The position numbers and the translations under genes are program-made. 64,000 bases of DNA from an uncultured Rhodospirillaceae bacterium (GTDB taxonomy: Bacteria > Pseudomonadota > Alphaproteobacteria > Micavibrionales > UBA2020), in NCBI GenBank assembly GCA_964476835.1, contig CAYZCE010000008.1, positions 512 to 64,511 on the forward strand. The letters are read 5' to 3'. Numbering within the stretch: position 1 is the stretch's first letter; every line of letters begins with the position of its first letter. Positions 8,217 to 48,552 of the stretch are shown here, one piece after another. Below the pieces are notes generated by a model. The model did no database searches and had not been told where the DNA came from. It was given only the letters and a program-made list of their open reading frames with translations.

Positions 8217-8390
8217 GCGGCGAATCTCCTTAAAAAATAAAGCGAATGGCGAATGGCGTGAATAATGAACGAAATTCATAATTATGTCAATTAAAAAGTG
8301 TGCGCGGCCTACAGACAGCGGCGGGGAGCCACTTCTTCCTTGCCTCGGGGCTTTTTCTTATGGTACTACCTATCCCGTTCTGATGCGTAT

Positions 8391-8526: not shown

Positions 8527-9102
8527 CTATTTCTTCGCCGACGCGGGGTCGACCCAGCCGATGTTGCCGTCCTTGCGGCGGTAGACCATGTTGAGGCCGC
8601 CGTGCTTGGGGTTGCGGAACAAAAGCGCGGGCATGCCGCCCAGCTCGAGGCGCATCACGGCGTCGGCCACCGCCAGCGTCTGCACCGGCGCGGTCATTTC
8701 GGCGATGATGGCGGGCTCTTCGCCGCCTTCGACTTCTTCCTCGGCATCTTCGGCGCGGAAAGTGGTGTAGACCGCGCTCAGGTCGTCCGCCGCTTCATGC
8801 TTGCGGTGGTCGCGCAGGCGGTCCTTGTAGCGGCCGAGGCGCTTGCCGAGCATCTTCGCCGCGATGTCGAAGGCCGGGTAGGGATCGTCCGTCTCATGTT
8901 CGGATTGCAGCACGATGCCGCCGCCGCGCACGTGGATCGAGATGTCGGCCTTGAACAAATGCGGCTTCTCTTTTGAGAAGATCACCGTCGCCTCGATCGG
9001 GTCGCGGAAGTATTTCTGTGCCGTATGCGTCAGAATCTCTTCTACATGACCGCGCAGGCTGTCGCCCACATCGAGGTTCTTGCCTTTGACCGTGAGTTGC
9101 AT
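8527..9102 (-). CDS. hpf: ribosome hibernation promoting factor, long form (sigma54 modulation protein family)
   Basis: 191 aa. N-terminal MQLTVKGKNLDVGDSLRGHVEE...ATVIFSKE...ADISIHV (S30AE/HPF fold), acidic linker and C-terminal dimerisation-type domain. Lies directly downstream of rpoN. Confidence 0.92.
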   Translation of the reverse strand: MQLTVKGKNLDVGDSLRGHVEEILTHTAQKYFRDPIEATVIFSKEKPHLFKADISIHVRGGGIVLQSEHETDDPYPAFDIAAKMLGKRLGRYKDRLRDHRKHEAADDLSAVYTTFRAEDAEEEVEGGEEPAIIAEMTAPVQTLAVADAVMRLELGGMPALLFRNPKHGGLNMVYRRKDGNIGWVDPASAKK

Positions 9103-9180
9103 GTTGTTGTCCTTGAATTTGATGAAGAAAGTACCACCCTTAATATTGTAGGCGGGTCGTCTTAAAATAGCGTTAACGCC

Positions 9181-10644
9181 TTATTTACCTTGGGCTTTCA
9201 GCCGCCGGCGTTGCACCGAGGAGAGGATCTTCATCGCCTCGCGGTACTTGGCGACCGTGCGGCGCGCGATCGCGATGCCGGCTTCCGCCAGGCGGTCGAC
9301 CAGGTCGTCGTCGGAGAGGACGGCGTCGGCGGCTTCCGCGTCGATCAGCGTCTTGATGCGCGCCTTGATGGCTTCCGACGAAAATTCCGCGGCGCCGTCG
9401 GATGTCGAGACGCCGGAGGTGAAGAAGTATTTCAGCTCGAACACGCCGCGCGGGGTGCCGATATATTTGCCGGTGGTGACGCGGCTGACCGTGCTCTCGT
9501 GCATGGCGATCGCGTCGGCGACGTCCTTGAGCACCATGGGCTTGAGGTATTCGACGCCGTAGTTGAAGAAGGCTTCCTGCTGCAGGATGATGTCGGTCGC
9601 GACTTTCATGATCGTCTGCGCGCGCTGGTCCATCGCTTTGACCAGCCAGTTGGCGGTGGCGAGCTGGTCGGAGAGGTATTCCTTATCCTGCTTGGTCTTC
9701 GCGCCCTTCTGGATCTCGGCGTAGTAGACCTTGTTGACCAGCACGCGCGGCAGCGTGTCGGCGTTGAGCTCCACCGCCCAGCCGCCGCCTTTGCTTTTCG
9801 GCAGCGGCTTCATGAGCACGTCGGGCACCACGGTCTGCGAGACGAAGTGGTCGAAATGCAGCGCGGGCTTGGGGTCGAGCGCCTTGATCTCCCCGATCAT
9901 CTCGCGCAGGTCGTCGTCGTCGACGCCGCAGGCGGCCTTCAGTTTCTTGAGGTCGTGCCCGGCGAGCAGCTCGAGATTCTGGAGCAATTTCTCCATCGCC
10001 GGGTCGAGGCGGTTCTTCTCGCGCAGCTGCAGCGACAGGCATTCGCTGAGCGAGCGGGCGAAGATGCCGGCGGGATCGAGTTGCTGCAGGCGCGTGAGGA
10101 TGCCCTCGATGCGCGCCGTATCGACGCCGAGCCGCGCGGCCAGCGCCTCGGCCGGCGTGCGGAAATAGCCGGCTTCGTCGAGATAGTCGAGCATCAAGAC
10201 GGCGATCGCGCGATCGCGCGGCTCGGTGAAGTCGACATGGATCTGGTCGAGCAAATGGTCGCGCAGCGTCGTCGTCGCGGCCATGGTGTTCTCAAAGCCG
10301 TTCTCGGGGTCGTCGAAGGTGCTGTTGCCGCCCGCGCCGGTTCCGGCGAAAGCGGAGGTGGAATAATCCATGCCTTCTTTTTCTTCCGCCTTCTCGCTGA
10401 AGCCTTCGCCGGTGTCGAGCGGCGCTTCGTCCTGCTGCTGCGGTTCGCCCGCGGCTTCTTCGGCGGGTGCGTCTGGCCCTTGCGCGTCGTCGCGCTCGAG
10501 TAGCGGATTCTTCTCGAGTTCGGCCTCGATGAATTCGGAAAGCTCAAGGTTCGACAACTGCAGCAGCTTGATCGCCTGCTGCAATTGCGGCGTCATGCTG
10601 AGCGCCTGGCCTTGCCGTAGATCAAGACGTTGATTGATCGTCAT
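9181..10644 (-). CDS. rpoN: RNA polymerase sigma-54 factor
   Basis: Trimmed to MTINQRLDLRQGQALSMTPQLQQAIKLLQLSNLEL (region I). C-terminal RpoN box ARRTVAKYRE and HTH region MHESTVSRV present. Confidence 0.93.
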   Translation of the reverse strand: MTINQRLDLRQGQALSMTPQLQQAIKLLQLSNLELSEFIEAELEKNPLLERDDAQGPDAPAEEAAGEPQQQDEAPLDTGEGFSEKAEEKEGMDYSTSAFAGTGAGGNSTFDDPENGFENTMAATTTLRDHLLDQIHVDFTEPRDRAIAVLMLDYLDEAGYFRTPAEALAARLGVDTARIEGILTRLQQLDPAGIFARSLSECLSLQLREKNRLDPAMEKLLQNLELLAGHDLKKLKAACGVDDDDLREMIGEIKALDPKPALHFDHFVSQTVVPDVLMKPLPKSKGGGWAVELNADTLPRVLVNKVYYAEIQKGAKTKQDKEYLSDQLATANWLVKAMDQRAQTIMKVATDIILQQEAFFNYGVEYLKPMVLKDVADAIAMHESTVSRVTTGKYIGTPRGVFELKYFFTSGVSTSDGAAEFSSEAIKARIKTLIDAEAADAVLSDDDLVDRLAEAGIAIARRTVAKYREAMKILSSVQRRRLKAQGK

Positions 10645-10709
10645 CCCTGAACTCCCTATACTCCTTATATCACAGACGCGCCGGCGCGCGGAGATTTTAA
10701 AGAGAAGAT

Positions 10710-11393
10710 ATGTCAAACGAGACGCTGGAAATCATCCCGACCTCTGCGTTAGTCGCCTTCGAGGACTTTGTCGGCAAATATCCCGTCAAGGTCGATCTCG
10801 TCTACGCGCAGCCGGCGCACCGCGACAACATGTTCGGATCCGGCATCTACCGCGCCGACGCGCGCATGCTCGCGCACCGCGACATGGCGGCGGTCGTGCT
10901 GCGCGCGGCGGAGATTTGCTTCAAGCGCAGCGGCTATATCTTCGAGCTGAAAGATTGCCTACGCACCGTCGAGGCGCAGGCGATGATGATGGAGACCGAC
11001 ATCGTCAAGGCGCATCCGCATTGGACGGAAGAACCGAACCGCCTCCTGTCGCCGCCCGGGCGCGGCGGGCATCCGCGCGGCATGGCCGTCGACATCATCC
11101 TTCTCGACAAGAACGGCGACGACGTTGACATGGGCACGCGTTTCGATTTCCTGACTGAAGACCGCGCCAACAATCCCGCCGCGCGCAACTACGCTAACTT
11201 CAGTGCCGAGGTGTTGCAGAACCGCCGCCTTCTCGAAGAAAGCATGATGGAAGCCGCCGCCGAAGCCGGGCGCGAGTTGCTGCCGCTACCGCAGGAATGG
11301 TGGGACTTCCGCTTCCCGCACAGTTACACCAGCCGCTTCGCGCCGATCTGCGACAAGGATTTGCCGCCCGCGCTGCGGATGACGGCGCTATAA
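10710..11393 (+). CDS. M15-family D-alanyl-D-alanine dipeptidase-like protein (VanX/DdpX-like)
   Basis: 227 aa. VDLVYA..., SPPGRGGHPRGMAVDI (H-x6-D zinc motif) and PQEWWDFRF (position of the EWWH motif). Confidence 0.78.
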   Translation: MSNETLEIIPTSALVAFEDFVGKYPVKVDLVYAQPAHRDNMFGSGIYRADARMLAHRDMAAVVLRAAEICFKRSGYIFELKDCLRTVEAQAMMMETDIVKAHPHWTEEPNRLLSPPGRGGHPRGMAVDIILLDKNGDDVDMGTRFDFLTEDRANNPAARNYANFSAEVLQNRRLLEESMMEAAAEAGRELLPLPQEWWDFRFPHSYTSRFAPICDKDLPPALRMTAL

Positions 11394-27900: not shown

Positions 27901-27976
27901 CGTAAAGATTTTCCTGCCGAATCTTCCTTGTCAATCTCCGCGCCGGTTTGTCATTCTAATGTGCAGAAGAAACCTC

Positions 27977-30900: not shown

Positions 30901-31834
30901 CACGCTTAACATGATCAACAACGCGCTCAACCTCAACAGCATGCACCTCGACGAAGTGCGCCAGACCGGCCTTTCCGGCGGCACGGCGGTGCGCGGCATG
31001 CAGTTCTGGACGCAGGCCTTCGGCCAGACGGCAAACCAGGGCATGCGCGGCGGCGATGCGGGTTTCGAGGCGGATACGGCGGGCTTTGCGGCCGGCATCG
31101 ATTCCGAGAACCTCGTGAAGAACGCGGTGATCGGCGCGGCCGTCGACTACGGCCACACCAACGTCAACTCCAGCAACGGCAACAGCACCGGCGCCGACAT
31201 CAACAGCTACCAGCTGACGGCCTACGGCGAGTACGACTTCGGCAACAAGACCTACTTCAACGCGCAGGCGTCTTATGCGTTCAACAAGACCGACGTTGTG
31301 CGCTACGACGTCGGCGGCCTCGGCGGCTTGACGGCGCGCGGTAGCTTCGATGCCGACCAATACGCGTTGCGCGCTGAAACCGGCCACAGCTTCCAGGCCG
31401 GCGCGACCACGCTGACGCCCAAGGCGCTGGCGCACTGGGCGCACTACAGCCCCGACGACTACACCGAAACCGGCGCGGGCGGCGCGAGCCTTGCGGTCAA
31501 CCAGAAGTCGATGGACATCTTCGAGCTGGGCGGCGGCCTCGACGCCAGCTGGAAGTTCCGCCGCGACGACGGCGCCGAAGTGGTGCCGGCGATCCGCGCG
31601 GGATACCGCTATGACCTCATCGGCGACAGCGTCGCCTCGACGTCGACCTTCGCGGGCGGCGGCACGGCCTTCAGCACCGAAGGCGCAAGCCCGGCGCGCG
31701 GCACCGCCACGCTCGGCGCAGGCCTCAAGTACGCGCTGCCCAACGCGGTCGACCTGACGCTCAATTACGATTTCGAGCACAAGGCCGACTATAATTCCAA
31801 CTCGGGCTACCTTCGCGTCGGGTACAGCTTTTGA
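27977..31834 (+). CDS. autotransporter outer-membrane protein 1 (large Gly/Thr/Asp/Asn-rich passenger + C-terminal beta-barrel)
   Basis: Signal-like MKTSLLAGVALMCLVATGARA-DN. Passenger of about 950 aa. C-terminal ~280 aa has the autotransporter beta-domain pattern (MQFWTQAFGQ..., alternating hydrophobic strands, terminal YLRVGYSF). Start ambiguous (27977, 27998 or 28022). Confidence 0.85.
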   Translation: MNKDRPSMTSRSARAMKTSLLAGVALMCLVATGARADNFITDGETVSADHINASWDIYGTGLPDNTANITINSIGNTVTLGAFNSYAAFQFDPTPDADPDLIGALTVIGGNAVTFDGFIDGSHGGITLTSAATNLTFHDDITNNVAITIGDDANAVAATFMLADQSISGLAGGYDLNVSATIDAGGTAPENAAINVVNNTGSYHTVIFSSDLGSQGALGAITVGADTVSTGVDFGGNVDATNITLGGWSTQGDTNFAIFGNAVAAPTVVTADIDGAEYESAVDDISEENTGGNWVGVEGGADVTFTGAIGSKISAVLLGLGGDGTEDTSATFTDDVATSIILNTTGISENNHFDSDYATPPNDSLTIDATGGDITVSGTILNAVFYNNPSYSTPEELMDSLTGTVILTGGTIGTPREINVGAIDFVNTLNVGDYTTVNLAGDSTSHDGMDWEMYSNDIYGNSILLLNVAMQDHSVINLTTPGGSILEAIVSSTGGTVNVGEDSAALFDGDTSTAVNLQGANASVGFDSFPGNPAVSVVTSDIVSSIADVSERGQTRTVSFNDVDFQGTLSFGDANDTLHIENMTLDGPVDLGYGANHVELANGGAISNSTSDPDITFGSGTSVLKLTAATFDGAVAHSGTGGVVLDLHGGCPTSDPCAAIGADATFEDLTDVDVTDDISVVQAALAPANGTSITSSGTLIINGGSASLAGDVRGDSTGTLAFSNGSFSNPASGGVYSSVSLALDNATFTTATATDTGIDSLHAISVLDGSTFNVNADVSSADALTVDNSTVNIAAGKTLAAGSMNGMTDGTLSFGLDDDGTAGRLTLTDGGIILQGATVKIDLTSPSTFSLTTPVLLATGTATLIGFDGSDGQAATEIGANTALWTFYVEDGTYAGGDDTQLYVVAERDGPSIAEVGAEHSPSNASVGATFDGLSATTDPQLLAILTKINAAPTDAAINAILSSVKPTGNGAAAGTLNMINNALNLNSMHLDEVRQTGLSGGTAVRGMQFWTQAFGQTANQGMRGGDAGFEADTAGFAAGIDSENLVKNAVIGAAVDYGHTNVNSSNGNSTGADINSYQLTAYGEYDFGNKTYFNAQASYAFNKTDVVRYDVGGLGGLTARGSFDADQYALRAETGHSFQAGATTLTPKALAHWAHYSPDDYTETGAGGASLAVNQKSMDIFELGGGLDASWKFRRDDGAEVVPAIRAGYRYDLIGDSVASTSTFAGGGTAFSTEGASPARGTATLGAGLKYALPNAVDLTLNYDFEHKADYNSNSGYLRVGYSF

Positions 31835-33225: not shown

Positions 33226-33320
33226 AGTTTCGTAAAAAGGCGCCTCTCAAAAAAGCCCCCCTCGGCTAGAATCAGGCTGACTGATTTGTGACGAATAATA
33301 ACAACGAAAAAGTAACGCAC

Positions 33321-35711
33321 ATGATGTCACCCTTTCTCCGCAAAGCCCTTTTCGCAGGCTCGGCCCTTGTCGCCTTGGGCGCGGCAGTGCCCGCGCAGGC
33401 TTCGACGCAAATCGTCAACGGCAGCGACATCGTCGTCAACAGCGACCCTAACGCGACGCCCGCGATCGAGTTCCAGTCGGACAACATCGCCACCATCAAC
33501 GGCGGCGTCAACATCACGGGCACCATCGTCGCGGATGCGCCGTCCACCGGCATCCTCCGCTTCCTCGGCTCTACCATCGTCGAAGGCGACGTCGGCAGCG
33601 CGACCAATGCGCTGAACCGCATCGACCTCTTCACCCAGATCGAGTTCAAGGGTGTGGTCTATACCGATGGCTTCGCAGGCCCCTTGGATGATGCGGAAGT
33701 CACCTTCGACCAAGACGTCTATGCCCTGTTGAACGGCCTCAACTTCGGCACCAGCCCGACGTCGGGCACCGTCAACCTCGCCGACGGCGTGACGTTCCAT
33801 GGCGATATCGTCAACACCGTCTCGTCCGAAGGCGGGCAGAGCGGCGGCATCCTGACCTTGTGGGGCGACGGCGTAGTGACCGGCATCGTCGGCGGCGGCC
33901 CCGGCAGGCCGCTCGACACCATCAACGCCGGCGTTGACGGGTCTTCGTCGACGTTTGAAAACACAGTCATGACGGCCACGGCGAACATCACCGGCGACGG
34001 CACGGTGACCTTCGACCAAAGCGTCGAGACGTCCGGCGTCAACTTCCTCGCCAACGGCACGGTCGTGCTCACCTACGGCTATAGCCTGAGCGGCCCCGAA
34101 GGCGGCAACACCCTAATGGTCGGCGCAGAAGCGGCGCCGCCGGGCGGCGGACATGGCAACGTCCTCATCCAGGGCGGCGACAATGGCACTTTCAATTTGC
34201 ACAGCAGCCTCGGCGGCCTCAACTCCCTGACGCTGGACGGCACGGGCAATACGACGACGGTCACCGGCAACGTCAATTCGATCAACGCCATCTACCTCGG
34301 CACCAACAGCCTCGTCATCAACGGCGGTTTCACCGAAGCGGCGGGTGATGCGATTTACGCGACGATCACGGGCGAAGTGGGCAGCACGCTGACCGGCGGC
34401 AACATCACCGTCGCCGGATCTGAGGGCGGCGGCACCGTGAACCTCGACATCTCGCCGTCGACGGCCGTCTACCTCGCCAACAACAGCCCCAGCGTCCACG
34501 CGGGCGACGTCTATACGCTTGTGACCTGCGCCACCGCCTGCAGCGCGGCGATCGGCACCGGCATCACGCCGGTCTCGCCGGGGCTTTCGTTCACGCAAGT
34601 CACCTCGGACCCGAACGTGCTGGCCTTCACGGTCAGCGCCGTCACGCCTGCGGGCGGCCTCAGCAATGCGCCCTTGTTCTACATGGCCGACCTGCCGCTC
34701 GAGGTGCTCGACGTGACGAGCGACGAATTGATGGCCGTGCGCGACGGCAACCCGGCGGTGGCCAGCGCGATGACTGGCATGTCCGCCGGTTACGCCGCGC
34801 CCAACGTCATCTACTTCAGCATGCCGTCGGGTTACAGGACCATCGGCGACCGGGACGGCAAGTCGCCCGTCGTCAACACCACCAACGCATGGATGCAGGC
34901 CTACGGCCAGCTGACGACGCAGGACACGCATGACGGCTATGCCGGCTATCACGCGATCGCGCGCGGCATGAGCGCCGGCGTGGACACGATTTCCCTGATC
35001 AAGGACACCATCGTCGGCATCGCGGCGAACTTCATTTCCGCCGACCTCAAGTCGAAGAACAACGAGAAGGCCGAAGTCGAGAGCCGCGGCATCATCGTCT
35101 ACGGCGGCCATGAACTGCCCTACAACCTCTTCACGCGCGCGCAGGCGGGTTATTCCTACAACACGGTCACGACGAAACGCTACAATTCCGACGGCGTCGG
35201 CGGCGAGTCCGACGGCAACTACGGCGCGGACCAATACTACGCGAAAGCCCTCGTCGGGCGCGATTACGTGACGAACAACGGCACGATCCTGACGCCCAAC
35301 GTCGTCGCCGACTATATCGGCCTGCACACGCAGGATTACACCGAGACCGGCTCGAGCCTGAGCAACCTGTCGATCGCCAGCGAGACCTTCAGCCAGTTGC
35401 GCGCCGGGCCCGGCCTCGACATGGCGTGGCGCATGCAGAACGCGAACGGCGGCGTCTTCCAGCCGTTGCTGCGCGTGCTCTACCAATACGACATCCTCGG
35501 CAACCGCCAGAGCACGGCCGCGACACCGGTGGGCGGCGGCGGCGCCATCATCGCCGACGGGCCGTCTCCCGCGCGCAACATCATCCGCCTCGGCGCGCAG
35601 GCGACGTACATGACGGTCGCGGGCTGGGATATTTCCGCCCGCTACGACTTCACGTACAAGACGGACTATCACGCCAACGACGGACTGCTGCGCGCGACCC
35701 TGCACTTCTGA
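33321..35711 (+). CDS. autotransporter outer-membrane protein 2 (paralog of 27977..31834)
   Basis: MMSPFLRKALFAGSALVALGAAVPAQA-STQ signal. Gly/Thr/Asn-rich passenger. Beta-domain begins around NAWMQAYGQ and ends LLRATLHF. Start at 33321/33324, or GTG at 33288. Confidence 0.85.
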   Translation: MMSPFLRKALFAGSALVALGAAVPAQASTQIVNGSDIVVNSDPNATPAIEFQSDNIATINGGVNITGTIVADAPSTGILRFLGSTIVEGDVGSATNALNRIDLFTQIEFKGVVYTDGFAGPLDDAEVTFDQDVYALLNGLNFGTSPTSGTVNLADGVTFHGDIVNTVSSEGGQSGGILTLWGDGVVTGIVGGGPGRPLDTINAGVDGSSSTFENTVMTATANITGDGTVTFDQSVETSGVNFLANGTVVLTYGYSLSGPEGGNTLMVGAEAAPPGGGHGNVLIQGGDNGTFNLHSSLGGLNSLTLDGTGNTTTVTGNVNSINAIYLGTNSLVINGGFTEAAGDAIYATITGEVGSTLTGGNITVAGSEGGGTVNLDISPSTAVYLANNSPSVHAGDVYTLVTCATACSAAIGTGITPVSPGLSFTQVTSDPNVLAFTVSAVTPAGGLSNAPLFYMADLPLEVLDVTSDELMAVRDGNPAVASAMTGMSAGYAAPNVIYFSMPSGYRTIGDRDGKSPVVNTTNAWMQAYGQLTTQDTHDGYAGYHAIARGMSAGVDTISLIKDTIVGIAANFISADLKSKNNEKAEVESRGIIVYGGHELPYNLFTRAQAGYSYNTVTTKRYNSDGVGGESDGNYGADQYYAKALVGRDYVTNNGTILTPNVVADYIGLHTQDYTETGSSLSNLSIASETFSQLRAGPGLDMAWRMQNANGGVFQPLLRVLYQYDILGNRQSTAATPVGGGGAIIADGPSPARNIIRLGAQATYMTVAGWDISARYDFTYKTDYHANDGLLRATLHF

Positions 35712-35800: not shown

Positions 35801-36412
35801 ATGTCTGTCACACTGCACCAGGGCGATCTTCCTGCGGGAATTTCATTCGGCGACGTCGTCGCCGTCGATACCGAAATGATGGGGCTGCGCCCCGCGCGCG
35901 ACCGCCTCTGCCTCGTGCAGTTGTCGGCGGGCGACGGCAGCGCGCATATCGTGCAGCTGAAGAAGGGTGACTATGCCGCGCCGAACCTGCGCAAGCTGCT
36001 GACCGACCCGAGTGTGACCAAGCTCTTCCACTTCGCGCGTTCCGACATCGCGTCCATCTACGCATGGCTCGGCGTCCTCTGCGCGCCGGTCTATTGCACC
36101 AAGCTGGCGTCGCGCCTGGCGCGCACCTATACGCAGCACCATTCGCTCAAGACCGTCTGCTCTGAACTGCTCGGCGTCGAACTCGACAAGCAGCAGCAGG
36201 CGACCAACTGGGGCGCGGAGACGCTGACGCCGGAGCAGGTGGCCTACGCCGCTTCCGACGTGCTCTACCTGCACCGCATCAAGGAAAAGCTCGACGCCAT
36301 GCTGGCGCAGGAAAGCCGCCGCGCGCTGGCGGATGAATGTTTCCGCTTCCTGCCCGCGCGCGCGTTGCTCGACCTTGCCGGCTGGGACAACGAAGACATT
36401 TTCGCGCATTGA
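35801..36412 (+). CDS. ribonuclease D-like DEDD 3'-5' exonuclease (short form)
   Basis: 203 aa. ExoI VAVDTEMMGL, ExoII KLFHFARSDI and ExoIII QVAYAASDVLYLHRI. Confidence 0.87.
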   Translation: MSVTLHQGDLPAGISFGDVVAVDTEMMGLRPARDRLCLVQLSAGDGSAHIVQLKKGDYAAPNLRKLLTDPSVTKLFHFARSDIASIYAWLGVLCAPVYCTKLASRLARTYTQHHSLKTVCSELLGVELDKQQQATNWGAETLTPEQVAYAASDVLYLHRIKEKLDAMLAQESRRALADECFRFLPARALLDLAGWDNEDIFAH

Positions 36413-37194
36413 TGGAAACGCAGGACAACAGCAGCGCGCAGAACCTTCCGGCCCTTGCGCCCGTGTTCAACGATGCGGCGCAGGCCGCCCTGCGCCTTGC
36501 CGCGCAAGACGAAAACATCGCGCATATCGCCGCCATCCTGAAGCAATATCCCGGCGCGGCCGCCACCTATACGGCGCAGCAGGTGCTGATGGAATCCATC
36601 GAGGAATGCAAGGTCGCCGTCGCCCTCGCGCTGCTGGACGGCGGCGTCAGTCCCGACGACAGCCGCCGCAAGGGCGAGACGCCGCTGACCTTGGCCGTGC
36701 AATGCGGCTTGCCGGAAGTCGTCGAAAAAATCCTCGACATGGGCGGCGACGTGAACAAGGCGAATACCGACGGCTGCACGCCGTTCCTGCTTGCGGTATG
36801 GAAGGACAATTTGGCTGTCGCCCGCCAGCTGCACGCCCGCGGCGCCAATATCGACCGCCCCAACAGCAACGGGGAGACATCGCTGATCCTGGCGATCGCC
36901 CACAACTATGAAACGGCGGCGCGCTTCCTGCTCGCCGCGGGCGCCGATATCGCGCCGGTCGACCATGACGGCGTCTCGGCCCGTTCGGAGGCGAGAAAAT
37001 ATCTGGAGAAGCCTGAGGGCGATCTCTATATCCGCCTGCTCGACATCAGCGTGGAAGACCGCCGCCGCGCCGCCGAAGCCGCCATCGAGGCGGAGAAGTG
37101 CGCCATCAGCGAAAACACCCTGGGGCGGTTGCAGCAATGTGCCGGGGGTGGGGCAGCATTCCGCCGGAAATCTCCGCCGCCGGGACCGCAATAG
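36412..37194 (+). CDS. ankyrin repeat protein 1 (260 aa)
   Basis: The ATG overlaps the stop of the upstream exonuclease gene (TGATG). ANK repeats such as KGETPLTLAVQCGLPEVVEKILDMGGDVNKANTDGCTPFLLAV and NGETSLILAIAHNYETAARFLLAAGADI. The tail is AAFRRKSPPPGPQ. Confidence 0.85.
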   Translation: METQDNSSAQNLPALAPVFNDAAQAALRLAAQDENIAHIAAILKQYPGAAATYTAQQVLMESIEECKVAVALALLDGGVSPDDSRRKGETPLTLAVQCGLPEVVEKILDMGGDVNKANTDGCTPFLLAVWKDNLAVARQLHARGANIDRPNSNGETSLILAIAHNYETAARFLLAAGADIAPVDHDGVSARSEARKYLEKPEGDLYIRLLDISVEDRRRAAEAAIEAEKCAISENTLGRLQQCAGGGAAFRRKSPPPGPQ

Positions 37195-37330
37195 GCTTTA
37201 TTTTTCATAATTTATAACTTTTTGCGATAAAATCCTGAATCCAGCTGTTTCGGCGCCCAGAAAAGACTGTCCATAACCACGGGGACGGCTTATTATTTCC
37301 CGATCAGAATCAAGGAAAAGCGAAATTTTC

Positions 37331-38098
37331 ATGACCGCGAAGAACGGCAAGAAAAAGAAGAAGCCCGCGCCGCGCAAGAAGCCGTCCGCGCCCGCGAAGG
37401 ATGACGGCAAGAAGAAGCCGAAGGCCGCATCGCCCTCCTTCAACAAGAAGGCCAAGACCCCCAAGCCGGGGCCGTCGCCGGAAGACATCAGCGACCTCAT
37501 GTCCTCGGTCGTCGCCGGCGTCAAGGATGAGGTTGTCGCCTTCGTCAAGAAATTCCCCGGTTTCGTCGATGTCAAGAGCGACGCTGACGAAACCACGGCG
37601 CTTTACAACGCCGCCTTCTGGGGCCAGGAAGAGATCGTGGCCGTCCTGCTGAAGGCGGGCGCCAAGCCCGACCTGCCCTGCACCAGCGGCGCCACGCCGA
37701 CACTGCGCGCGGCCGAGCGCGGGCATGAGGCGTCGCTTGAGCTGCTGCTCCGCGCCGGCGCCAATCCAAACCTGCAGGATGAAGACGGCGATACGGCGCT
37801 GTCGGCCGCGGCATACAGGAACGAACCGTCGTGCGCGCGCATGCTGATCGACTACAATGCCGACGTCACCATCGCCAATAACGACGGCAATACCGCGCTC
37901 GACATCGCGCGCGAGTACGAGCGCGATGCATTCACCGAACTTTTCGAGGCTGCCGCCGCCCGTCAGCAGGAAGCCCGCGCCAAGGCCGAAGAGCAGCGCA
38001 AGACCGACGCCAGCGCGAGCGCCATCGACCGCCTGAAGACCAACGCGCCCGCACCGCGCAGCGTGTTCGGCAAGAAGAACAAGCCGCCCAAGCCATGA
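37331..38098 (+). CDS. ankyrin repeat protein 2 with Lys/Pro-rich N-terminus (255 aa)
   Basis: N-terminus MTAKNGKKKKKPAPRKKPSAPAKDDGKKKPKAASPSFNKKAKTPKPGP. ANK repeats (SGATPTLRAAERGHEASLELLLRAGANPN, DGDTALSAAA, DGNTALDIA). The tail is SVFGKKNKPPKP. Confidence 0.88.
   Translation: MTAKNGKKKKKPAPRKKPSAPAKDDGKKKPKAASPSFNKKAKTPKPGPSPEDISDLMSSVVAGVKDEVVAFVKKFPGFVDVKSDADETTALYNAAFWGQEEIVAVLLKAGAKPDLPCTSGATPTLRAAERGHEASLELLLRAGANPNLQDEDGDTALSAAAYRNEPSCARMLIDYNADVTIANNDGNTALDIAREYERDAFTELFEAAAARQQEARAKAEEQRKTDASASAIDRLKTNAPAPRSVFGKKNKPPKP
38058..38093 (+). repeat. 36-nt exact direct repeat, copy 1 (3' end of ankyrin gene 2)
   Basis: GCAGCGTGTTCGGCAAGAAGAACAAGCCGCCCAAGC is identical to 38729-38764. 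It encodes SVFGKKNKPPK. Confidence 0.95.
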
Positions 38099-38769
38099 AC
38101 CTTTCCCCCCTCGCGCAACAGCAGCCGGAAGAGACCGACATCAGCCTCTTCATGACCGCCGTCATCGATGGCGACGCGGTGCGCATCAAGGGTTTCCTCG
38201 AGCGTTTCTTCGGCCTCGCCAATACGGCGAATCCCGAGAACGGCATCACGGCCCTGTGCTATGCCGCCGGCGACGGGCGCGACGACATCGTGGAAATCCT
38301 GCTGGAAGCGGGGGCCGATGTCGACCTGCCGTCGTTCGGCGTGCTCGCGGGTGATACGCCGTGGGCGGACGGCGCCACGCCGCTCATGAAGGCGGTGGAA
38401 TTCGGCCGCGTGAGCACGGCGATCCTGCTGTTCGGCGCCGGCGCGAAGGTCGACCGCCAGAGCCGCAGCGGCTACACCGCGCTGATGGTGTCGGTCGAGC
38501 GTTTCAATCCCGAGATGAGCGCCCTTGTGCTCTCCTACAAGCCCAACACGGCGTTGACCAACAATAAGGGCCATTCCGCGCTTGATCTTGCGCGCATTGC
38601 GGCGGAAGCCCGCCTCCAATTCGCGGCGCAGCTCGGCGGCGATATCGGGCGCGTGGAAAAAGAGCGCGCCGCCGAAGGGGTCAGCGATATCTCCCTCGGC
38701 AAGCTGCGGGTAAAATCCATCAAGCCGGGCAGCGTGTTCGGCAAGAAGAACAAGCCGCCCAAGCTGTAA
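38095..38769 (+). CDS. ankyrin repeat protein 3 (224 aa)
   Basis: ATGA overlap with the preceding gene. ANK repeats (NGITALCYAAGDGRDDIVEILLEAGADVD, DGATPLMKAVEFG, SGYTALMVSV, KGHSALDLA). The tail is SVFGKKNKPPKL. Confidence 0.88.
   Translation: MNLSPLAQQQPEETDISLFMTAVIDGDAVRIKGFLERFFGLANTANPENGITALCYAAGDGRDDIVEILLEAGADVDLPSFGVLAGDTPWADGATPLMKAVEFGRVSTAILLFGAGAKVDRQSRSGYTALMVSVERFNPEMSALVLSYKPNTALTNNKGHSALDLARIAAEARLQFAAQLGGDIGRVEKERAAEGVSDISLGKLRVKSIKPGSVFGKKNKPPKL
38729..38764 (+). repeat. 36-nt exact direct repeat, copy 2 (3' end of ankyrin gene 3)
   Basis: Identical to 38058-38093. The flanking sequence on both sides differs. Confidence 0.95.
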
Positions 38770-42003: not shown

Positions 42004-42726
42004 TTATTGCGCGGGCGCTGCGACAGGCGCTTTCGCGGCCGCCGGTTTTGTGGGCAGCTGCTGCTGTTCGGACATCTTGACCGTGATCTGGCGGGCCTTG
42101 TCGGGGTCCATCTGCGCGATGATGGGGGAGCTCTTGCGTTCGCTCATCTTGCCGAGCACCTGCATCAGGACGTCCATGTCGAGCGTGTCGAAGATGCGCG
42201 CGGCTTCCTTCGGCTTCATGCCTTCATAAATCTTCACGAGGCTGTCGATATGCGCGTTTTCGGCAGCCTGCTGCTTGGCGAGCAGGCCTTCGAGGTCGCC
42301 CTTGAGCTTGTTCAGCTCCGCGATCTTGCGGTCGACTTCGCCTTCGGCGGCTTTCATCAACGCTTCGCGCTTGGCGATGCCCTGTTCGCGCGCGTCGAGG
42401 TTGTCGCGGCGCTTGGCGAGGGATTGCAGCACGTCGATCTCGGCGGCGCTATAGGCGCGCTCGCCATTGGTGGGCGGCGGCGGGATGCTGGCGTCGGCAG
42501 GCGCGGGCGCAGGCTTGGTCGCGGCATCCGGCGCAACATCGGGTGCAGGCGCTGCCGCAGCGGCAGGTTTCGCATTCGGGTCGGCGAGCGTGCTTTGCAG
42601 GCCCGTGGCAGGCGCGGCGCTTTCGGCAGCGGAAGGCGTGATGACGGCGGAAACGTCGAGCAGGCGCAAGCCCGCCTCGAGCACGGCGACGACCATCAAT
42701 ATCGTGAAGATGTTGAAACGCTTCAT
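42004..42726 (-). CDS. motE: flagellar motor chaperone MotE-like protein (MgtE_N-like domain)
   Basis: N-terminal TM/signal, Ala/Pro-rich linker and coiled coil. Also KIYEGMKPKEAARIFDTLDMDVLMQVLGKMSERKSSPIIAQMDPDKARQIT (COG3334-type). Confidence 0.78.
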   Translation of the reverse strand: MKRFNIFTILMVVAVLEAGLRLLDVSAVITPSAAESAAPATGLQSTLADPNAKPAAAAAPAPDVAPDAATKPAPAPADASIPPPPTNGERAYSAAEIDVLQSLAKRRDNLDAREQGIAKREALMKAAEGEVDRKIAELNKLKGDLEGLLAKQQAAENAHIDSLVKIYEGMKPKEAARIFDTLDMDVLMQVLGKMSERKSSPIIAQMDPDKARQITVKMSEQQQLPTKPAAAKAPVAAPAQ

Positions 42727-43169
42727 GACTGTGTCTTCGCTTTCATCGCCTCAAGCAATTCCTTCTCGGCGCGGCTGCGCGGCTGCAGGGCGTCGGGCAG
42801 CGGGTCGACGGCGCTTTCGGTCGTGGCCGCCACATGCGCGCGGCGGCCGGATTCGGCCAGCGCCTGCAGGCGGTTGGCGAGGTTGTCGCCGGCCTGGATC
42901 ATGATTTCGAGCTCCTCGGCCATGGCGCGGGCGCGGTTGTTCTTTTCCTGCAGCTGTTCGCCGCTTTGCAGCGCGGCTTCGCGGATGTTCTTGAGCGTGC
43001 CGTCGGCGCGCGCGATGGCGACGTTGAGCGCGGAGATCAGCGTCTCGAAAGCCTTGCGGTCGGCCTGCATCTGGTTGAACTGGCGCGACAGGCGCATGCA
43101 CTGGAAGATCGTGTAGACCAGCGTGCCGAGGATGGCGACGTCGAAGACGAGGTTGAAAATCTGCATCAT
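42723..43169 (-). CDS. flagellar-cluster membrane/coiled-coil protein of unknown function (possibly DUF6468-like)
   Basis: 148 aa with one N-terminal TM (FDVAILGTLVYTIF) then a coiled coil. Translationally coupled to motE (overlap) and 4 nt after fliM. Confidence 0.62.
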   Translation of the reverse strand: MMQIFNLVFDVAILGTLVYTIFQCMRLSRQFNQMQADRKAFETLISALNVAIARADGTLKNIREAALQSGEQLQEKNNRARAMAEELEIMIQAGDNLANRLQALAESGRRAHVAATTESAVDPLPDALQPRSRAEKELLEAMKAKTQS

Positions 43170-43172
43170 GTC

Positions 43173-44198
43173 TTAAATGTCCTCAGGCGGCGGCGGTTCG
43201 ATGTATTCCTCGATGCTGACGGCGACGAGGCCTTTTTTCTGCCCGATCTTGCCCATGAACATCGCGTTTTCGCCGACGCGCATCTCGATCAGCTCGTCGG
43301 GGCGCGTGTTGAGCATGACGATGGAGCCAGGTTTCCAGTTGACCATTTCCTCGAGCGGCACGGTGGTCTCGCCGAGGATGGCGGAGAGCTGGATGTCGGT
43401 CTGGTACAATTCGCGCGTCAGGTGGACTTCCCAGATGCTGTCGCGGCCGAACTTTTCGCCCATGAACATCTGCAGCAGCAGTTCGCGGATCGGCTCGAGC
43501 GTCGCGTAGGGCAGCATCACCTCGATGCGGCCGGAGCGGTCGCCCATGTCGATGCGCAGGCGCGCCAGCACGCCGGCGTTGTTACTTTGCGTGATGGTGG
43601 CGAAACGCGGGTTGGTCTCGATGCGGTCGAGATGGAAGCTGACGGGCGACAGCGGGTCGAAGGCCGACGACAGGTCGTTGAGGATCACGTGCACGAGGCG
43701 TTCGATCAGCTTGGTCTCGATCGTCGTGTAAGGACGGCCCTCGACGCGCAACGCGGCGGAACCACGGCGGCCGCCGAGCAGCACGTCGACCAGCGCATAG
43801 ATCAGCGCGCTGTCGACGACAAGCAGGCCGTAGTCGTCCCATTCCTCCGCCTTGAAGATGCTGAGCATCGCGGGCAGGGGGATCGAGTTGAGGTAGTCGC
43901 CGAAGCGCACGGAGGAAATGTGATCGAGCGAAATCTCGACGTTGTCGGAGGTGAGGTTGCGCAAGCTCGTCGACATCAGCCGCACGAGGCGATCGAAGAC
44001 GATGTCGAGCATCGGCAGGCGTTCGTAGTTGACGAGCGCGCTGTTGATCAGCTCCATCAGGCCGGAGCGCGCGCTCTTGTTCGCGTCGCCGTCGAAGCCG
44101 AGCAGGCTGTCGATCTCGCTCTGGTCGAGGATGCGGCCTTCTTCGGCCGGGGCGGCGGCCTGTTCGGCTGCCGGATTTTCCTGCGCGTCCGCCGTCAT
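43173..44198 (-). CDS. fliM: flagellar motor switch protein FliM
   Basis: N-terminal CheY-P binding-type LDQSEIDSLLGFD, the central FliM domain and a C-terminal SpoA/FliN-like region (GSIVMLNTRPDELIEMRVGENAMFMGKIG). Confidence 0.92.
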   Translation of the reverse strand: MTADAQENPAAEQAAAPAEEGRILDQSEIDSLLGFDGDANKSARSGLMELINSALVNYERLPMLDIVFDRLVRLMSTSLRNLTSDNVEISLDHISSVRFGDYLNSIPLPAMLSIFKAEEWDDYGLLVVDSALIYALVDVLLGGRRGSAALRVEGRPYTTIETKLIERLVHVILNDLSSAFDPLSPVSFHLDRIETNPRFATITQSNNAGVLARLRIDMGDRSGRIEVMLPYATLEPIRELLLQMFMGEKFGRDSIWEVHLTRELYQTDIQLSAILGETTVPLEEMVNWKPGSIVMLNTRPDELIEMRVGENAMFMGKIGQKKGLVAVSIEEYIEPPPPEDI

Positions 44199-44794
44199 TG
44201 CATCAATATCTCCTGGAACAGCACGTCGCGCACGCGCACGGTCGGCGCGGAGGCGCGTACGCGGTTGAGCAGCTCGATCTTGAGGCGGTAGATGCCCGAG
44301 GTGCCGCGCAGGTCGTCGACGCGCAGCTCGCGCAGGTACATCTGGAACTGGTCGACCACGCGGGGCAGCAGCTTTTCCATGTTCTTCTTGTCGAGTTCGG
44401 TGTCGAGCTCGATCTTCATCGAGATCTTCAGGAAGCGCGGCTGCTTCGACGGGCTGTTGAGGTTGACGATGATGTCGGGCACGTCGATGAAGCTGACCGG
44501 CTTGCCGTCGTCGGCCGCCGCGCGCTGCGTCTCGCAGGCCTCGAAGTTGGGGTCGCCTTCCTTGACGTTGTCGCAGGAGAGCGGCGCCTTGTCGTGATGC
44601 ATGTAGAAATACCCGCCGCCGCCAAGCGCGATCAGCAAGACGATCGGCACCATCAGGAGGAGCAGCTTCTTGCGCGGGAACTTTCCGCCGGCGGCTTCGC
44701 CACCTTCGGCGGGAGCTGCACCTTCGGCAGGGGCCGCGCCTTCGGCGGCGGCGTCCTTCGCCTCGTCTTCTTTTTTCTTCTTATCGTCGGCCAT
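44195..44794 (-). CDS. fliL: flagellar basal body-associated protein FliL
   Basis: Trimmed to MADDKKKKEDE. One TM (LLLLMVPIVLLIALGGGGYFY). FliL core FIDVPDIIVNLNSPSKQPRFLKISMKIEL. Its stop overlaps the fliM start. Confidence 0.88.
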   Translation of the reverse strand: MADDKKKKEDEAKDAAAEGAAPAEGAAPAEGGEAAGGKFPRKKLLLLMVPIVLLIALGGGGYFYMHHDKAPLSCDNVKEGDPNFEACETQRAAADDGKPVSFIDVPDIIVNLNSPSKQPRFLKISMKIELDTELDKKNMEKLLPRVVDQFQMYLRELRVDDLRGTSGIYRLKIELLNRVRASAPTVRVRDVLFQEILMQ

Positions 44795-44859
44795 CTTACC
44801 CTGCTTATGGCAACAATGCGCGCGCACGTGAACGCCGCATCCAAACTCCTTATAAACCC

Positions 44860-44875
44860 TGCATATATCGTGCCA
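44860..44875 (-). promoter_or_regulatory. sigma54 (-24/-12) promoter candidate for fliL-fliM-x-motE
   Basis: The minus strand reads TGGCACGATATATGCA. This matches TGGCACG-N4-TTGCA at GG/GC with exact spacing and one mismatch. It lies about 65 nt upstream of the fliL ATG. Confidence 0.65.
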
Positions 44876-45033
44876 TGCTTTGGCAGCGCTGTCATTGGAT
44901 TTCTGGACGCCCGCGCGTGCTTGGCAAAATGTGCCCCGGCGATCTTCGCGCCTCTTTCTTGGTTTTGTCACCTTCTGTCAAACACGCCCAGAATACACAA
45001 ATTATCCAATTGTTTTTATTGAAGAAAATAAGT

Positions 45034-45049
45034 TGGCACGTTTTCTGCA
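45034..45049 (+). promoter_or_regulatory. sigma54 (-24/-12) promoter candidate for flgF-flgG-flgA-flgH
   Basis: TGGCACGTTTTCTGCA matches TGGCACG-N4-TTGCA with one mismatch and correct GG-N10-GC spacing. It lies about 87 nt upstream of the flgF ATG in an AT-rich spacer. Confidence 0.7.
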
Positions 45050-45135
45050 TTGTTGTCTTGCGGGTAAACGGCGCGTGCAGTTTGTCGGCCTTAATGAACG
45101 GACGGCGCGCCAGATAGAACAGAGTGGGTGGCTCG

Positions 45136-45861
45136 ATGGAAAACCTTTCATACATTGCCTTGTCGCGGCAGATGGCCTTGCAGAAGCTGCTCGACGTCAC
45201 CGCCAACAACATGGCGAACATGAGCACGCCGGGCTTCAAGGCGCAGAACGTCCTCTTCGAAGAATACATGAACAAGACCGGCACCAGCGGCAAGATCGGC
45301 CAGGTGCGCGATGCCGGCGGCTACCGCGACGTGGCCCAAGGCACGCTGTCGCGCACCGGCAACAAGCTCGACGTCGCGCTGCAGGGCGAAGGCTACTTCG
45401 CGGTGCAGACGCCTGACGGCAGCATCAAGTACACCCGCGACGGCTCCTTCAGCCTCAACAACAAGGGCGAGATCGTCACGCAGAACGGCAGCACGGTCGA
45501 AAGCGAAAACGGCGGCCCGTTGACCATTCCGCAGGGCGCGACCGACATCATGATTTCCGACAACGGCTCGGTCAGCACCAACCTCGGCGTCGCGGGCAAG
45601 CTGAAGGTCACGAGCTTCGCCAACGAAAAGGCGCTGATCAACACCGGCAACAACCTCTACGACTCCCACCTGACGGTCGAAAAGCCCGTCGAAGGCACGC
45701 TGGTCGAGCAAGGCATGCTGGAAACCTCCAACGTCTCGCCGGTCATGGAAATGAATAAGATGATCGATATCCTGCGCATGTACCAGGCGACGCAGAACAT
45801 GCTGAATACGGACCACGACATGTCGATGACGATGATCGACAAACTCACCAAGACTTCATAA
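45136..45861 (+). CDS. flgF: flagellar basal-body rod protein FlgF
   Basis: MENLSYIALSRQMALQKLLDVTANNMANMSTPGFK N-terminal rod motif and C-terminal LEQGMLETSNVSPVMEMNKMIDILRMYQA. Confidence 0.9.
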   Translation: MENLSYIALSRQMALQKLLDVTANNMANMSTPGFKAQNVLFEEYMNKTGTSGKIGQVRDAGGYRDVAQGTLSRTGNKLDVALQGEGYFAVQTPDGSIKYTRDGSFSLNNKGEIVTQNGSTVESENGGPLTIPQGATDIMISDNGSVSTNLGVAGKLKVTSFANEKALINTGNNLYDSHLTVEKPVEGTLVEQGMLETSNVSPVMEMNKMIDILRMYQATQNMLNTDHDMSMTMIDKLTKTS

Positions 45862-45877
45862 GCAAGGAGATACGCAC

Positions 45878-46666
45878 ATGATGCTCACCCTCGATATCGG
45901 CGCAACCGGCATGCTGGCACAGCAGCTCAACGTCGACACCATCTCGAACAACATCGCCAACATGACGACGACCGGCTTCAAGCGCCAGCGCGCCAGCTTC
46001 CAGGACTTGCTCTACCAGACCAAGATCCGTCCGGGCGCGTCGTCTTCCGACAGCGACACCACCATCCCGGTCGGCATCCAGCAAGGCCTCGGCGTCAAGG
46101 CCGGCGCGGTCTACCGCATCAACGAGCAGGGCGCGCTGCAGCAGACCAGCAACAAGCTCGACATGGCGATCTCCGGCGAAGGGTACTACCAAGTGCTGCT
46201 GCCGTCGGGCCAGACCGCTTACACCCGCGACGGTTCCTTCCAGCTCAACCAGAACGGCGAAATCGTCTCGGCGCAGGGCTACAAGCTGCAGCCCAGCATC
46301 ACTATCCCGAGCGACGCGACCGACATCACGGTCAACAACTCCGGCCAGGTGCTGGTGAAGCTGCAAGGCCAGACGTCGCTCTCCAACGTCGGCCAGCTCC
46401 AGCTCGCCGTCTTCCCCAACGCAGGCGGCCTTGAATCGATCGGTAACAACCTGAGCACCGAGACGGAAGCTTCCGGCGCCCCCCTCACCGGCAACCCCGC
46501 GCAGTCGGGCTACGGCGAGATCGACCAGGCCTTCCTCGAAGCCTCGAACGTCAACGTGGTCGAAGAAATCACCGCCCTCATCCAGGCGCAGCGCGCCTAC
46601 GAGATGAACTCCAAGGTCATCCAGACGGGCGACCAGATGCTGAACACCATCACGCAGCTGCGCTAA
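45878..46666 (+). CDS. flgG: flagellar basal-body distal rod protein FlgG
   Basis: 262 aa. GATGMLAQQLNVDTISNNIANMTTTGFKRQ and C-terminal FLEASNVNVVEEITALIQAQRAYEMNSKVIQTGDQML. Confidence 0.94.
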   Translation: MMLTLDIGATGMLAQQLNVDTISNNIANMTTTGFKRQRASFQDLLYQTKIRPGASSSDSDTTIPVGIQQGLGVKAGAVYRINEQGALQQTSNKLDMAISGEGYYQVLLPSGQTAYTRDGSFQLNQNGEIVSAQGYKLQPSITIPSDATDITVNNSGQVLVKLQGQTSLSNVGQLQLAVFPNAGGLESIGNNLSTETEASGAPLTGNPAQSGYGEIDQAFLEASNVNVVEEITALIQAQRAYEMNSKVIQTGDQMLNTITQLR

Positions 46667-46683
46667 TTAGGAGAAAATAAGCC

Positions 46684-47625
46684 ATGACGATCAAGTGCCC
46701 TGAACCCAAGAAGCCCCTGAACGCCCGCCTGCTGCTGATGGCGGTCGCCATGACGGCCTCCGTCGTCAGCCACGCCTTCGCGGCGATGCCGAAATCCGAA
46801 AGCGTCATCACCCGCGACCAGGTGACGCTGTCCGACGTCTTCGACGGCGTGACCGAGAACGCGGATTATGTTCTCGCCCCGGCGCCGGACATGGGCCGCA
46901 CGCTGACGCTCAACGTCAACGACCTCAACCGCATCTCGGAGGCCTTCAACCTTGGCTGGCATGCCTCCGCGCCGCAGCAGACCGTCATCCGCCGCTCCGT
47001 CAACGTGATCGGCAGCGCGGACATCAAGGACGCGCTCGTCCGCAGCCTGAAGGAAAAGCTGAGCGGCCAGCGCGTCGACCTCGACCTTGCCGACGCCAAC
47101 GCGACGCTCAAGGTGTCGGGCGAAACCGCGGCGCTGCCTTCCGTGCAGGAACTGCATGTCGATGCGGCGCACAATTCCTTCACCGCAGTGGTCGCTGCCG
47201 GCGATGCGCACCGCGACGTCAGCGGCACCTACTACAGCATCACGCAGCTGCCGGTGCTGAAAACCCCCTTGCGCCCCGGCGACGTGATCGCGAAAAGCGA
47301 CATTGATTTCATCGACGTCCGCTCGACCGACATCAGCGCCGCGATGATCGTGGACACCGGCCACCTCGTCGGCCAGACGCCGAAGCGCGGCCTCTCCGCC
47401 TTTAAGCCGCTGACCGCCAGCGACGTGACCGCGCCGATGGTCATCAAGAAGGGCGACCTCGTCACCATGACGCTGAAAAGCGACATCCTGATGCTGACGA
47501 CGCAAGGCCGCGCGATGGAAGACGGCGCCGCCGGCGACGTCGTGAAAGTGATGAACACCGCCTCCAAACAGACGCTCGACGCAGTCGTGACCGGCCCGCA
47601 AGCGGTCGACGTCCGCGCGCTCTAA
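46684..47625 (+). CDS. flgA: flagellar basal body P-ring formation chaperone FlgA
   Basis: Signal-like N-terminus. SAF-type region PLRPGDVIAKSDIDF and C-terminal GDLVTMTLKSDILMLTTQGRAMEDGAAGDVVKVMNTASKQTLDAVV. Confidence 0.85.
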   Translation: MTIKCPEPKKPLNARLLLMAVAMTASVVSHAFAAMPKSESVITRDQVTLSDVFDGVTENADYVLAPAPDMGRTLTLNVNDLNRISEAFNLGWHASAPQQTVIRRSVNVIGSADIKDALVRSLKEKLSGQRVDLDLADANATLKVSGETAALPSVQELHVDAAHNSFTAVVAAGDAHRDVSGTYYSITQLPVLKTPLRPGDVIAKSDIDFIDVRSTDISAAMIVDTGHLVGQTPKRGLSAFKPLTASDVTAPMVIKKGDLVTMTLKSDILMLTTQGRAMEDGAAGDVVKVMNTASKQTLDAVVTGPQAVDVRAL

Positions 47626-47646
47626 GACCAAGAAAGGGAAGATAAC

Positions 47647-48405
47647 ATGTCCAGCAAAACCGCAAAATTCCTGACCCACGCGACCTGCCTCGTCGCCGTC
47701 ATGGCGCTCTCCGCCTGCGGGATCTCTGACCGCCTCTCCTACGTCGGCAAGCCGCCCGCGATGGACAAGATCGAGAACCCCTACGAACAGGCCGACTACA
47801 AGCCGGTCTCCATGCCAATGCCGCCGGTCGTCGCGCAGAATACCGAGATGAACTCGCTCTGGCAGCCGGGCCGCTCGACCTTCTTCAAGGACCAGCGCGC
47901 CAACAAGGTCGGCGACATCCTGACCGTCCTCATCAATATCAAGGATATCGCCAACCTCAAGAACAAGACCGAACGCACCCGCGACAGCAACGACAGCGTC
48001 GGCGTGCCGAACATGTTGGGCTTTGAAACGAAGCTGGGCAAGGTTCTGCCGGATGCGGTCGACCCGTCGTCGCTCGTCAAGGCCAACTCCGCCTCCACCT
48101 CCACCGGCGACGGCAAGATCGAGCGCGGCGAGGAGATCAACCTCAAGCTCGCCGCCACCGTCGTGCAGGTGCTGCCCAACGGCAACTTCGTGCTGCAGGG
48201 CCGCCAGCAGGTGCGCGTGAACGCCGAACTGCGCGACCTCGCGCTGCAAGGCGTCATCCGCCCCGAGGACATCCTCAACAACAACTCCATCTCTTACGAG
48301 AAGATCGCAGAAGCGCGCATCATGTACGGCGGCAAGGGCTCGCTCGCCGACATCCAGACGCCGCGCTACGGTCAGCAGTTCTTCGACGCGGTCTTCCCCT
48401 TCTAA
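47647..48405 (+). CDS. flgH: flagellar L-ring lipoprotein FlgH
   Basis: Lipobox VMALSAC-G. FlgH core SLWQPGRSTFFKDQRANKVGDILTVLI and VLPNGNFVLQGRQQVRVNAE. Confidence 0.93.
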   Translation: MSSKTAKFLTHATCLVAVMALSACGISDRLSYVGKPPAMDKIENPYEQADYKPVSMPMPPVVAQNTEMNSLWQPGRSTFFKDQRANKVGDILTVLINIKDIANLKNKTERTRDSNDSVGVPNMLGFETKLGKVLPDAVDPSSLVKANSASTSTGDGKIERGEEINLKLAATVVQVLPNGNFVLQGRQQVRVNAELRDLALQGVIRPEDILNNNSISYEKIAEARIMYGGKGSLADIQTPRYGQQFFDAVFPF

Positions 48406-48451: not shown

Positions 48452-48485
48452 AGGGCCGATGCGTTGTCATCGGCCCTCTTTTTTT
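48452..48485 (+). terminator. rho-independent terminator after flgH
   Basis: AGGGCCGATG-cgttgt-CATCGGCCCT followed by CTTTTTTT. Confidence 0.78.
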
Positions 48486-48552
48486 GCGGTGGAAATGTGT
48501 CTATACTTCACGTCTTCGGTATTTTCCGTGGGGATAAAAGGACTTTTTAGTT

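Follow-up and report, generated by a model that had tools for sequence, protein, structure and literature searches.

Two predicted divergent sigma-54 promoters and a candidate enhancer in the fliL/flgF spacer of an uncultured alphaproteobacterium

The question raised by this locus is which sigma factor, and which kind of activator, govern two flagellar operons that leave one short spacer in opposite directions. The locus was analyzed within a 64-kb stretch of a metagenome-derived contig (Logan SRR8931241), called the window below; an identical FlgF is encoded on an NCBI contig of 65,999 bp (reads SRR8931241 and SRR8931242). A first-pass annotation had placed two back-to-back sigma-54-type promoters, about 160 bp apart in a 341-bp spacer, upstream of fliL-fliM-x-motE on one side and flgF-G-A-H on the other. 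NCBIfam and Pfam assignments agree with these operon identities (Table 1), x being a DUF6468 gene. The spacer extends from 44795 to 45135, between the ATG of fliL (44794, minus strand) and that of flgF (45136), and the two putative promoters, PfliL and PflgF, are separated by 162 bp from GG to GG, as had been described. Neighbouring genes of the fliL operon are joined by 4-bp overlaps or 3-bp gaps, and the order fliL-fliM-DUF6468-motE is also found in loci L021 and L025-L029 among those compared below; the order flgF-G-A-H is kept in all orthologous loci. The terminator that follows flgH is a strong one.

Table 1. Coordinates of the genes and of the observed or predicted regulatory features in the window
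Feature	Coordinates	Strand	Basis or detail
hpf	9102..8527	minus	next after rpoN
rpoN	9181..10716	minus	Pfam Sigma54_AID, Sigma54_CBD and Sigma54_DBD, all three present
MotE candidate, MgtE_N/FlbB-like	42726..42004	minus	NCBIfam/Pfam
DUF6468 gene	43169..42723	minus	NCBIfam/Pfam
fliM	44198..43173	minus	NCBIfam/Pfam
fliL	44794..44195	minus	NCBIfam/Pfam
Operon fliL-fliM-DUF6468-motE	42004..44794	minus	gene calls above
Extended near-invariant PfliL block AAA.C.TGGCACGaTAtATGCAGGGtt (fliL orientation), about -32 to -5	44855..44882	minus	anchored alignment of 10 loci, MAFFT
Putative PfliL -24/-12 core TGGCACGATATATGCA	44860..44875	minus	GG 44874/44873, GC 44862/44861
PfliL upstream element, TGACA at -45..-41	44889..44904	minus	anchored alignment
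Dyad GGCAAAATGTGCC (GGCA-N5-TGCC), candidate bEBP enhancer	44923..44935	.	cross-locus recurrence
Position of IHF-like site, about -57..-45 of PflgF	45003..45015	.	alignments, own consensus reading
Putative PflgF -24/-12 core TGGCACGTTTTCTGCA	45034..45049	plus	GG 45035/45036, GC 45047/45048
Predicted flgF 5' leader	45060..45135	plus	conserved GGGT(T/A)AA near +3, Shine-Dalgarno GGGTGG
flgF	45136..45861	plus	NCBIfam
flgG	45878..46666	plus	NCBIfam
flgA	46684..47625	plus	NCBIfam
flgH	47647..48405	plus	NCBIfam
Operon flgF-flgG-flgA-flgH	45136..48405	plus	intergenic gaps 16-21 nt
Intrinsic terminator 3' of flgH	48452..48487	plus	10-bp stem, 7 G-C pairs, then T run

The sigma factor itself is encoded nearby: rpoN, which had been reported in the window, was found as an ORF carrying all three sigma-54 domains. 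Among the window ORFs scanned with Pfam or NCBIfam (most of the confident, high-GC3, ORFs and several other long ORFs of the 64 kb), no gene for a sigma-54 activator (Sigma54_activat) was detected. Other traits of this neighbourhood were recorded in passing. The gap between the rpoN stop and the hpf start contains a perfect CtrA-box-like sequence, TTAAAATAGCGTTAAC, at 9162-9177, about 60 nt upstream of hpf and with overlapping one-mismatch copies. Compared with L025 and L026, the window shows an apparent inversion of about 31 kb (10700-42000): Peptidase_M15 is here the neighbour of rpoN, and the motE-like gene that of lptB, while the order in the two relatives is TetR, fructosamine kinase, MnmC, Peptidase_M15, (cheZ/cheY), motE, DUF6468, fliM and fliL, followed by the divergent flgF. 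Inverting the segment from 10.7 to 42.0 kb would restore this order together with the usual lptB-rpoN adjacency. The window also contains, at 27959-31834, 33288-35711 and 36337-38769, two large genes for autotransporters and a tandem array of three ankyrin-repeat genes; they hint at a host- or prey-associated lifestyle, consistent with Micavibrio-like relatives. A Rhodospirillaceae MAG and a Micavibrio sp. MAG are the nearest hits that bear a name.

The two motifs were examined on the sequence, and their letters and positions on both strands were exactly as annotated. Each core has the GG-N10-GC arrangement and departs from TGGCACG-N4-TTGCA by a single mismatch, at position -15 in both cases, so that the description of one mismatch with correctly spaced GG and GC holds. 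Both motifs face outward, with 65 nt (fliL) and 86 nt (flgF) between motif end and start codon, in line with the annotated 65-90 nt. The predicted transcription starts would lie at about 44849 (+/-2) for PfliL and about 45060 for PflgF, giving leaders of about 55 and 76 nt respectively. No other site of the window (128 kb on both strands) comes within one mismatch of TGGCACG-N4-TTGCA, for which 0.56 such matches are expected, and the exact pattern TGGCAC-N6-TGCA occurs three times where 0.20 is expected. The window was also scored with a sigma-54 PWM, as the first-pass annotation had suggested. This PWM was built from the published consensus mrNrYTGGCACGrNNNTTGCWNNw, with assumed weights in place of a curated matrix. 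It ranks PfliL and PflgF first and second (17.9 and 17.75 bits), and the second-best score of the window exceeds the second-best score of all 200 Markov-simulated windows (maximum 17.0). A third sigma-54-like site, TGGCACTTTTCCTGCA (8161-8176, plus strand, 16.6 bits), was treated as a chance match because it lies antisense within an ORF and has no plus-strand gene downstream; this ORF (7821-8279, minus strand) is of low GC, has no Pfam match and adjoins tRNA-Val (8391-8465).

To compare the spacer between genomes, FlgF homologues were collected by protein search and their contigs were then fetched, mainly via exact-protein look-ups; pattern scans of genome and metagenome collections yielded few close relatives. 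Nine non-redundant loci (L001, L002, L021, L023, L025, L026, L027, L028, which is a Micavibrio sp. MAG, and L029) share the divergent arrangement, with FlgF 49-63% identical to the window protein. Their spacers measure 301-460 bp and their central parts could not be aligned with MAFFT. Both motifs are kept in 9/9 of these orthologous spacers (10/10 clade loci with the window), counts that do not stand for independent events since the loci are akin to each other. The PfliL 16-mer is identical in seven of the nine and differs by one base in the other two, and the fliL-side score reaches 17.0 bits in every clade locus with a background-neutral PWM. On the PflgF side, TGGCA(C/T) and CTGCAT stay constant across 13 clade loci, with a variable spacer between them; the flgF motif is also present in L003, L004, L018 and L020, for which the flgF side alone was comparable. 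This comparative conservation is the strongest evidence for the two predicted promoters, and we regard it as decisive. Around PfliL the near-invariant block of Table 1 is conserved beyond what sigma-54 needs, and another factor may bind there too.

The comparison was extended to an outgroup of five alphaproteobacterial loci from outside the clade (L005, L007, L008, L009 and L014). On the flgF side the best sigma-54 scores of the outgroup, which includes Asticcacaulis, are 12-20 bits, up to 20.4. None of the five loci exceeds 6.5 bits on the fliL side, versus the 17.0 bits of the clade. In all five outgroup loci, GGTTAA(C/G) is found near fliL and resembles a CtrA half-site; in L008 and L009, moreover, the flgF -12 element is closely followed by repeats of the TTAA type. 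The spacer of the window contains no CtrA box (TTAA-N7-TTAAC, up to one mismatch), and GTTAAC, TTAACC and GGTTAA are absent from it. CtrA control of fliL was rejected for this clade, there being no CtrA box in the spacer. Sigma-70-like sites (-35/-10 hexamers 16-18 nt apart) were not found on the fliL strand of the spacer. The sole match, on the plus strand at 44965-44994, is weak (9/12 positions) and falls in a non-conserved part of the spacer, and sigma-70 promoters were rejected on that account. In Caulobacter, fliL is a CtrA-dependent class II gene (PMC4083442), whereas the window and its nine relatives present a near-invariant sigma-54 promoter motif in front of it. The earlier suggestion that the hierarchy may differ from that of Caulobacter fliLM finds support here: in this clade, fliL-fliM seems to have been transferred to the sigma-54 class.

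Promoters of this type call for an enhancer, and one had been suggested in the interval between the two motifs. A concrete candidate is now available there, namely the conserved dyad GGCA-N5-TGCC (Table 1). Measured from its centre, the flgF GG is 106.5 bp away and the fliL GG 55.5 bp away, which places the dyad roughly 130 and 80 bp upstream of the predicted transcription starts of flgF and fliL, respectively. Within the window, the mere number of exact dyads shows no enrichment (3 versus 1.67 expected). Across loci, 14 of 16 carry the form GG[C/A]A-N5-T[G/T/A]CC at a distance of 60-130 bp upstream of the flgF -24 element, versus 0.1 expected from shuffled stretches, and in 11 of these 14 the distance to the flgF promoter is within 95.5-107.5 bp. 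The 14 include the two Asticcacaulis loci, L008 and L009, and also L014, all outside the clade of the window; in the Asticcacaulis loci the GGCA-N5-TGCC dyad is 75-87 bp upstream of flgF, a distance similar to that in the window. The distance to the fliL promoter is not conserved (41.5-145.5 bp across loci), and in L027 the dyad is equidistant from the two promoters (99.5 and 101.5 bp). Since the dyad distance is constrained for the flgF promoter only, the sharing of one enhancer by both promoters, and their membership of one class, is best taken as a plausible inference. We propose the dyad as a candidate ftr-like (FlbD-type) enhancer, a label drawn from our own comparison with Caulobacterales loci rather than from a published consensus. 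The FlbD-type reading is based on the presence of the dyad upstream of flgF in Asticcacaulis (Caulobacterales) and on the activation of Caulobacter crescentus rod genes by FlbD.

Closer to each promoter, further elements were noted. DNA-bending sites in enhancer-dependent promoters usually occupy the positions at which two of them are found. Upstream of PfliL, TGACA and its 14-nt spacing to the fliL TGGCAC are invariant in 10/10 clade loci. Ahead of it lies an A/T tract, which reads AAATTAAA in the orthologs and is degenerate in the window, and in L023 TGACA is part of a complete inverted repeat, TGTCA-N10-TGACA. The element may serve as a bending or IHF-type site, or it may bind a second regulator. 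Upstream of PflgF, which carries ATTGAA at about -51..-46, the orthologs show TTTCAATGAATTA (bottom strand), with one mismatch to WATCAANNNNTTR; the window copy has two mismatches, and the assignment as an IHF-like site is weak. Downstream of PflgF, the sequence of the flgF leader is conserved in L001-L004, L018, L020, L021, L023, L025 and L026. Ortholog leaders contain CGACCTGC, an A-rich run of 13-20 nt and then GCAGGCG. A structured RNA in this leader is not supported (RNAalifold -1.5 kcal/mol, no compensatory pairs).

Several features of the spacer recall known flagellar systems. Caulobacter provides the classical example of divergent sigma-54 flagellar promoters that share ftr enhancers and have an IHF site, the flaN-flbG pair (reference titles in PMC3096577). 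In this pair, two sigma-54 promoters are served by dyad enhancers lying about 100 bp off in the shared spacer, a layout that the candidate dyad of the window resembles, and an IHF site is located between enhancer and promoter, where the window has an A/T-rich, weak candidate for an IHF-like site. The rod and ring genes of Caulobacter are RpoN/FlbD-dependent (PMC6180460, PMC7064773, PMC3930126); in C. crescentus class III, -24/-12 promoters are found upstream of flgF-flgG-flgA(flaD)-flgH, the same gene series as here, and fliL and flgF are divergent neighbours in the Caulobacterales loci (L007-L009) too. The other alphaproteobacterium with sigma-54 flagellar genes that we compared is Rhodobacter (Cereibacter) sphaeroides, whose Fla1 genes for the basal body and the hook require sigma-54 and the bEBPs FleQ and FleQ/FleT (PMC7277832), but Fla1 was acquired from a gammaproteobacterium. 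The native alphaproteobacterial set of this species, fla2, is CtrA-dependent and not RpoN-dependent, and FlbD is absent from those Rhodobacteraceae; in fla2, a single CtrA site serves the two divergent promoters fliL2p and fliF2p, a documented case of divergent flagellar promoters with one regulator site in common (PMC6180460).

Pseudomonas offers a parallel for the inclusion of fliL. There, the fliL-led operon (fliLMNOPQR, FleQ, class II) and the flgF-led operon (flgFGHIJKL, FleR, class III) are both sigma-54-dependent, as we propose for the window. Two different bEBPs are used, and the sites bound by FleQ are unusual in being promoter-proximal or downstream. The Pseudomonas operons are not divergent neighbours, unlike those of the window, and their content differs from fliL-fliM-DUF6468-motE and flgF-G-A-H, which contain these genes only. 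A sigma-54 promoter has been predicted upstream of P. putida fliL, and sigma-54-dependent fliL operons are already known or predicted in gammaproteobacteria (PMC3162934).

Other explanations of the spacer have to be weighed against that of two sigma-54 promoters with a dyad enhancer. The two matches could be functionless products of chance, and 11 of 100 shuffles of the whole window did yield at least two matches with at most one mismatch somewhere. Two such matches lying divergently in one 341-bp flagellar spacer, however, have a probability of about 2e-6 (our own arithmetic from the rate of matches with at most one mismatch), and the conservation of both motifs across the orthologous loci, at the modest FlgF identities given above, effectively refutes a chance origin, whose likelihood we take to be negligible. 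The conserved blocks could also be sites of another factor, or parts of sigma-70-family promoters, with an accidental likeness to -24/-12 elements. The extent of the PfliL block, conserved well past the sigma-54 core, would suit such an origin. It would nevertheless have to produce two independent, correctly oriented sites with GG-N10-GC and TGGCAC/TGCA, and at PflgF a conservation pattern, fixed -24/-12 and free spacer, which is that of sigma-54. The flgF promoters of the outgroup, including Asticcacaulis, are sigma-54 sites in accordance with the known RpoN dependence of rod genes, and the spacer offers neither usable sigma-70-like hexamers nor a CtrA box. We judge this explanation very improbable.

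The main rival accepts that both promoters are sigma-54-dependent and assigns them to two activators and two classes of the hierarchy: PflgF would respond to an FlbD-type protein through the dyad, and PfliL to another regulator through TGACA and the A/T tract (-41..-55). The constraint of the dyad distance for PflgF alone would be explained in this way, as would the invariant element, at invariant spacing, that PfliL possesses for itself in all ten loci. The full inverted repeat of L023 loosely resembles the FleQ box, GTCA-N6-TGAC, and the division of labour in Pseudomonas, where FleQ acts on fliL and FleR on flgF, provides a parallel. Yet the spacing of the L023 repeat is not that of the FleQ box, the other loci lack conservation in the right half of this putative repeat, and bEBP sites are not usually located at -45; the equidistant dyad of L027 is, moreover, what would be expected of a shared enhancer. 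Taken together, we find a scheme with two activators rather unlikely, while giving it more weight than the other two.

The reading that we prefer is that both operons are very probably sigma-54- and bEBP-dependent, and we consider it likely that the spacer is a divergent control region made of two sigma-54 promoters and a dyad enhancer, with an FlbD-type protein as the most likely activator. From the sequence comparisons we infer sigma-54 dependence in vivo, the start sites and the identity of the activator. In the proposed mechanism, PfliL would drive fliL-fliM-DUF6468-motE and PflgF would drive flgF-flgG-flgA-flgH as far as the terminator at 48452. Each -24/-12 element would hold sigma-54 holoenzyme as a closed complex, and the opening of each complex would need an ATP-hydrolysing enhancer-binding protein. 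This protein, most likely an activator of the FlbD type whose gene lies elsewhere in the genome, would attach to the central dyad and loop to PflgF, and probably also to PfliL, opening both. The A/T-rich elements at fixed positions, at about -41 to -57 of each promoter, would probably aid the bending of the DNA.

The type of control proposed here is ordinary for flagella; the inclusion of the fliL-fliM operon is the only unusual point, and it is a modest variation. It would leave the general understanding of sigma-54 or flagellar regulation unchanged. FliM, a switch protein, is a component of the C ring, and in Caulobacter FlbD is licensed by an early structure to which this ring belongs. With FliM under bEBP control, the checkpoint logic of Caulobacter would not fit unchanged. 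A tentative and somewhat doubtful extension of our reading is that, in the clade of uncultured alphaproteobacteria to which Micavibrio-like MAGs belong, fliL-fliM-DUF6468-motE shifted from an ancestral CtrA-type early class to the sigma-54 class, gaining a promoter of about 28 bp that hardly varies, together with a fixed upstream element of its own, which would imply a different assembly checkpoint. If true, the bEBP could be activated independently of the C ring, or a second bEBP of the master type could act at PfliL. For this uncultured lineage, the two predicted promoters, the candidate enhancer and the terminator make up a testable regulatory map of two flagellar operons. The lineage-specific change that they suggest in the wiring of the flagellar hierarchy may be useful for reconstructing how this hierarchy evolved in alphaproteobacteria.
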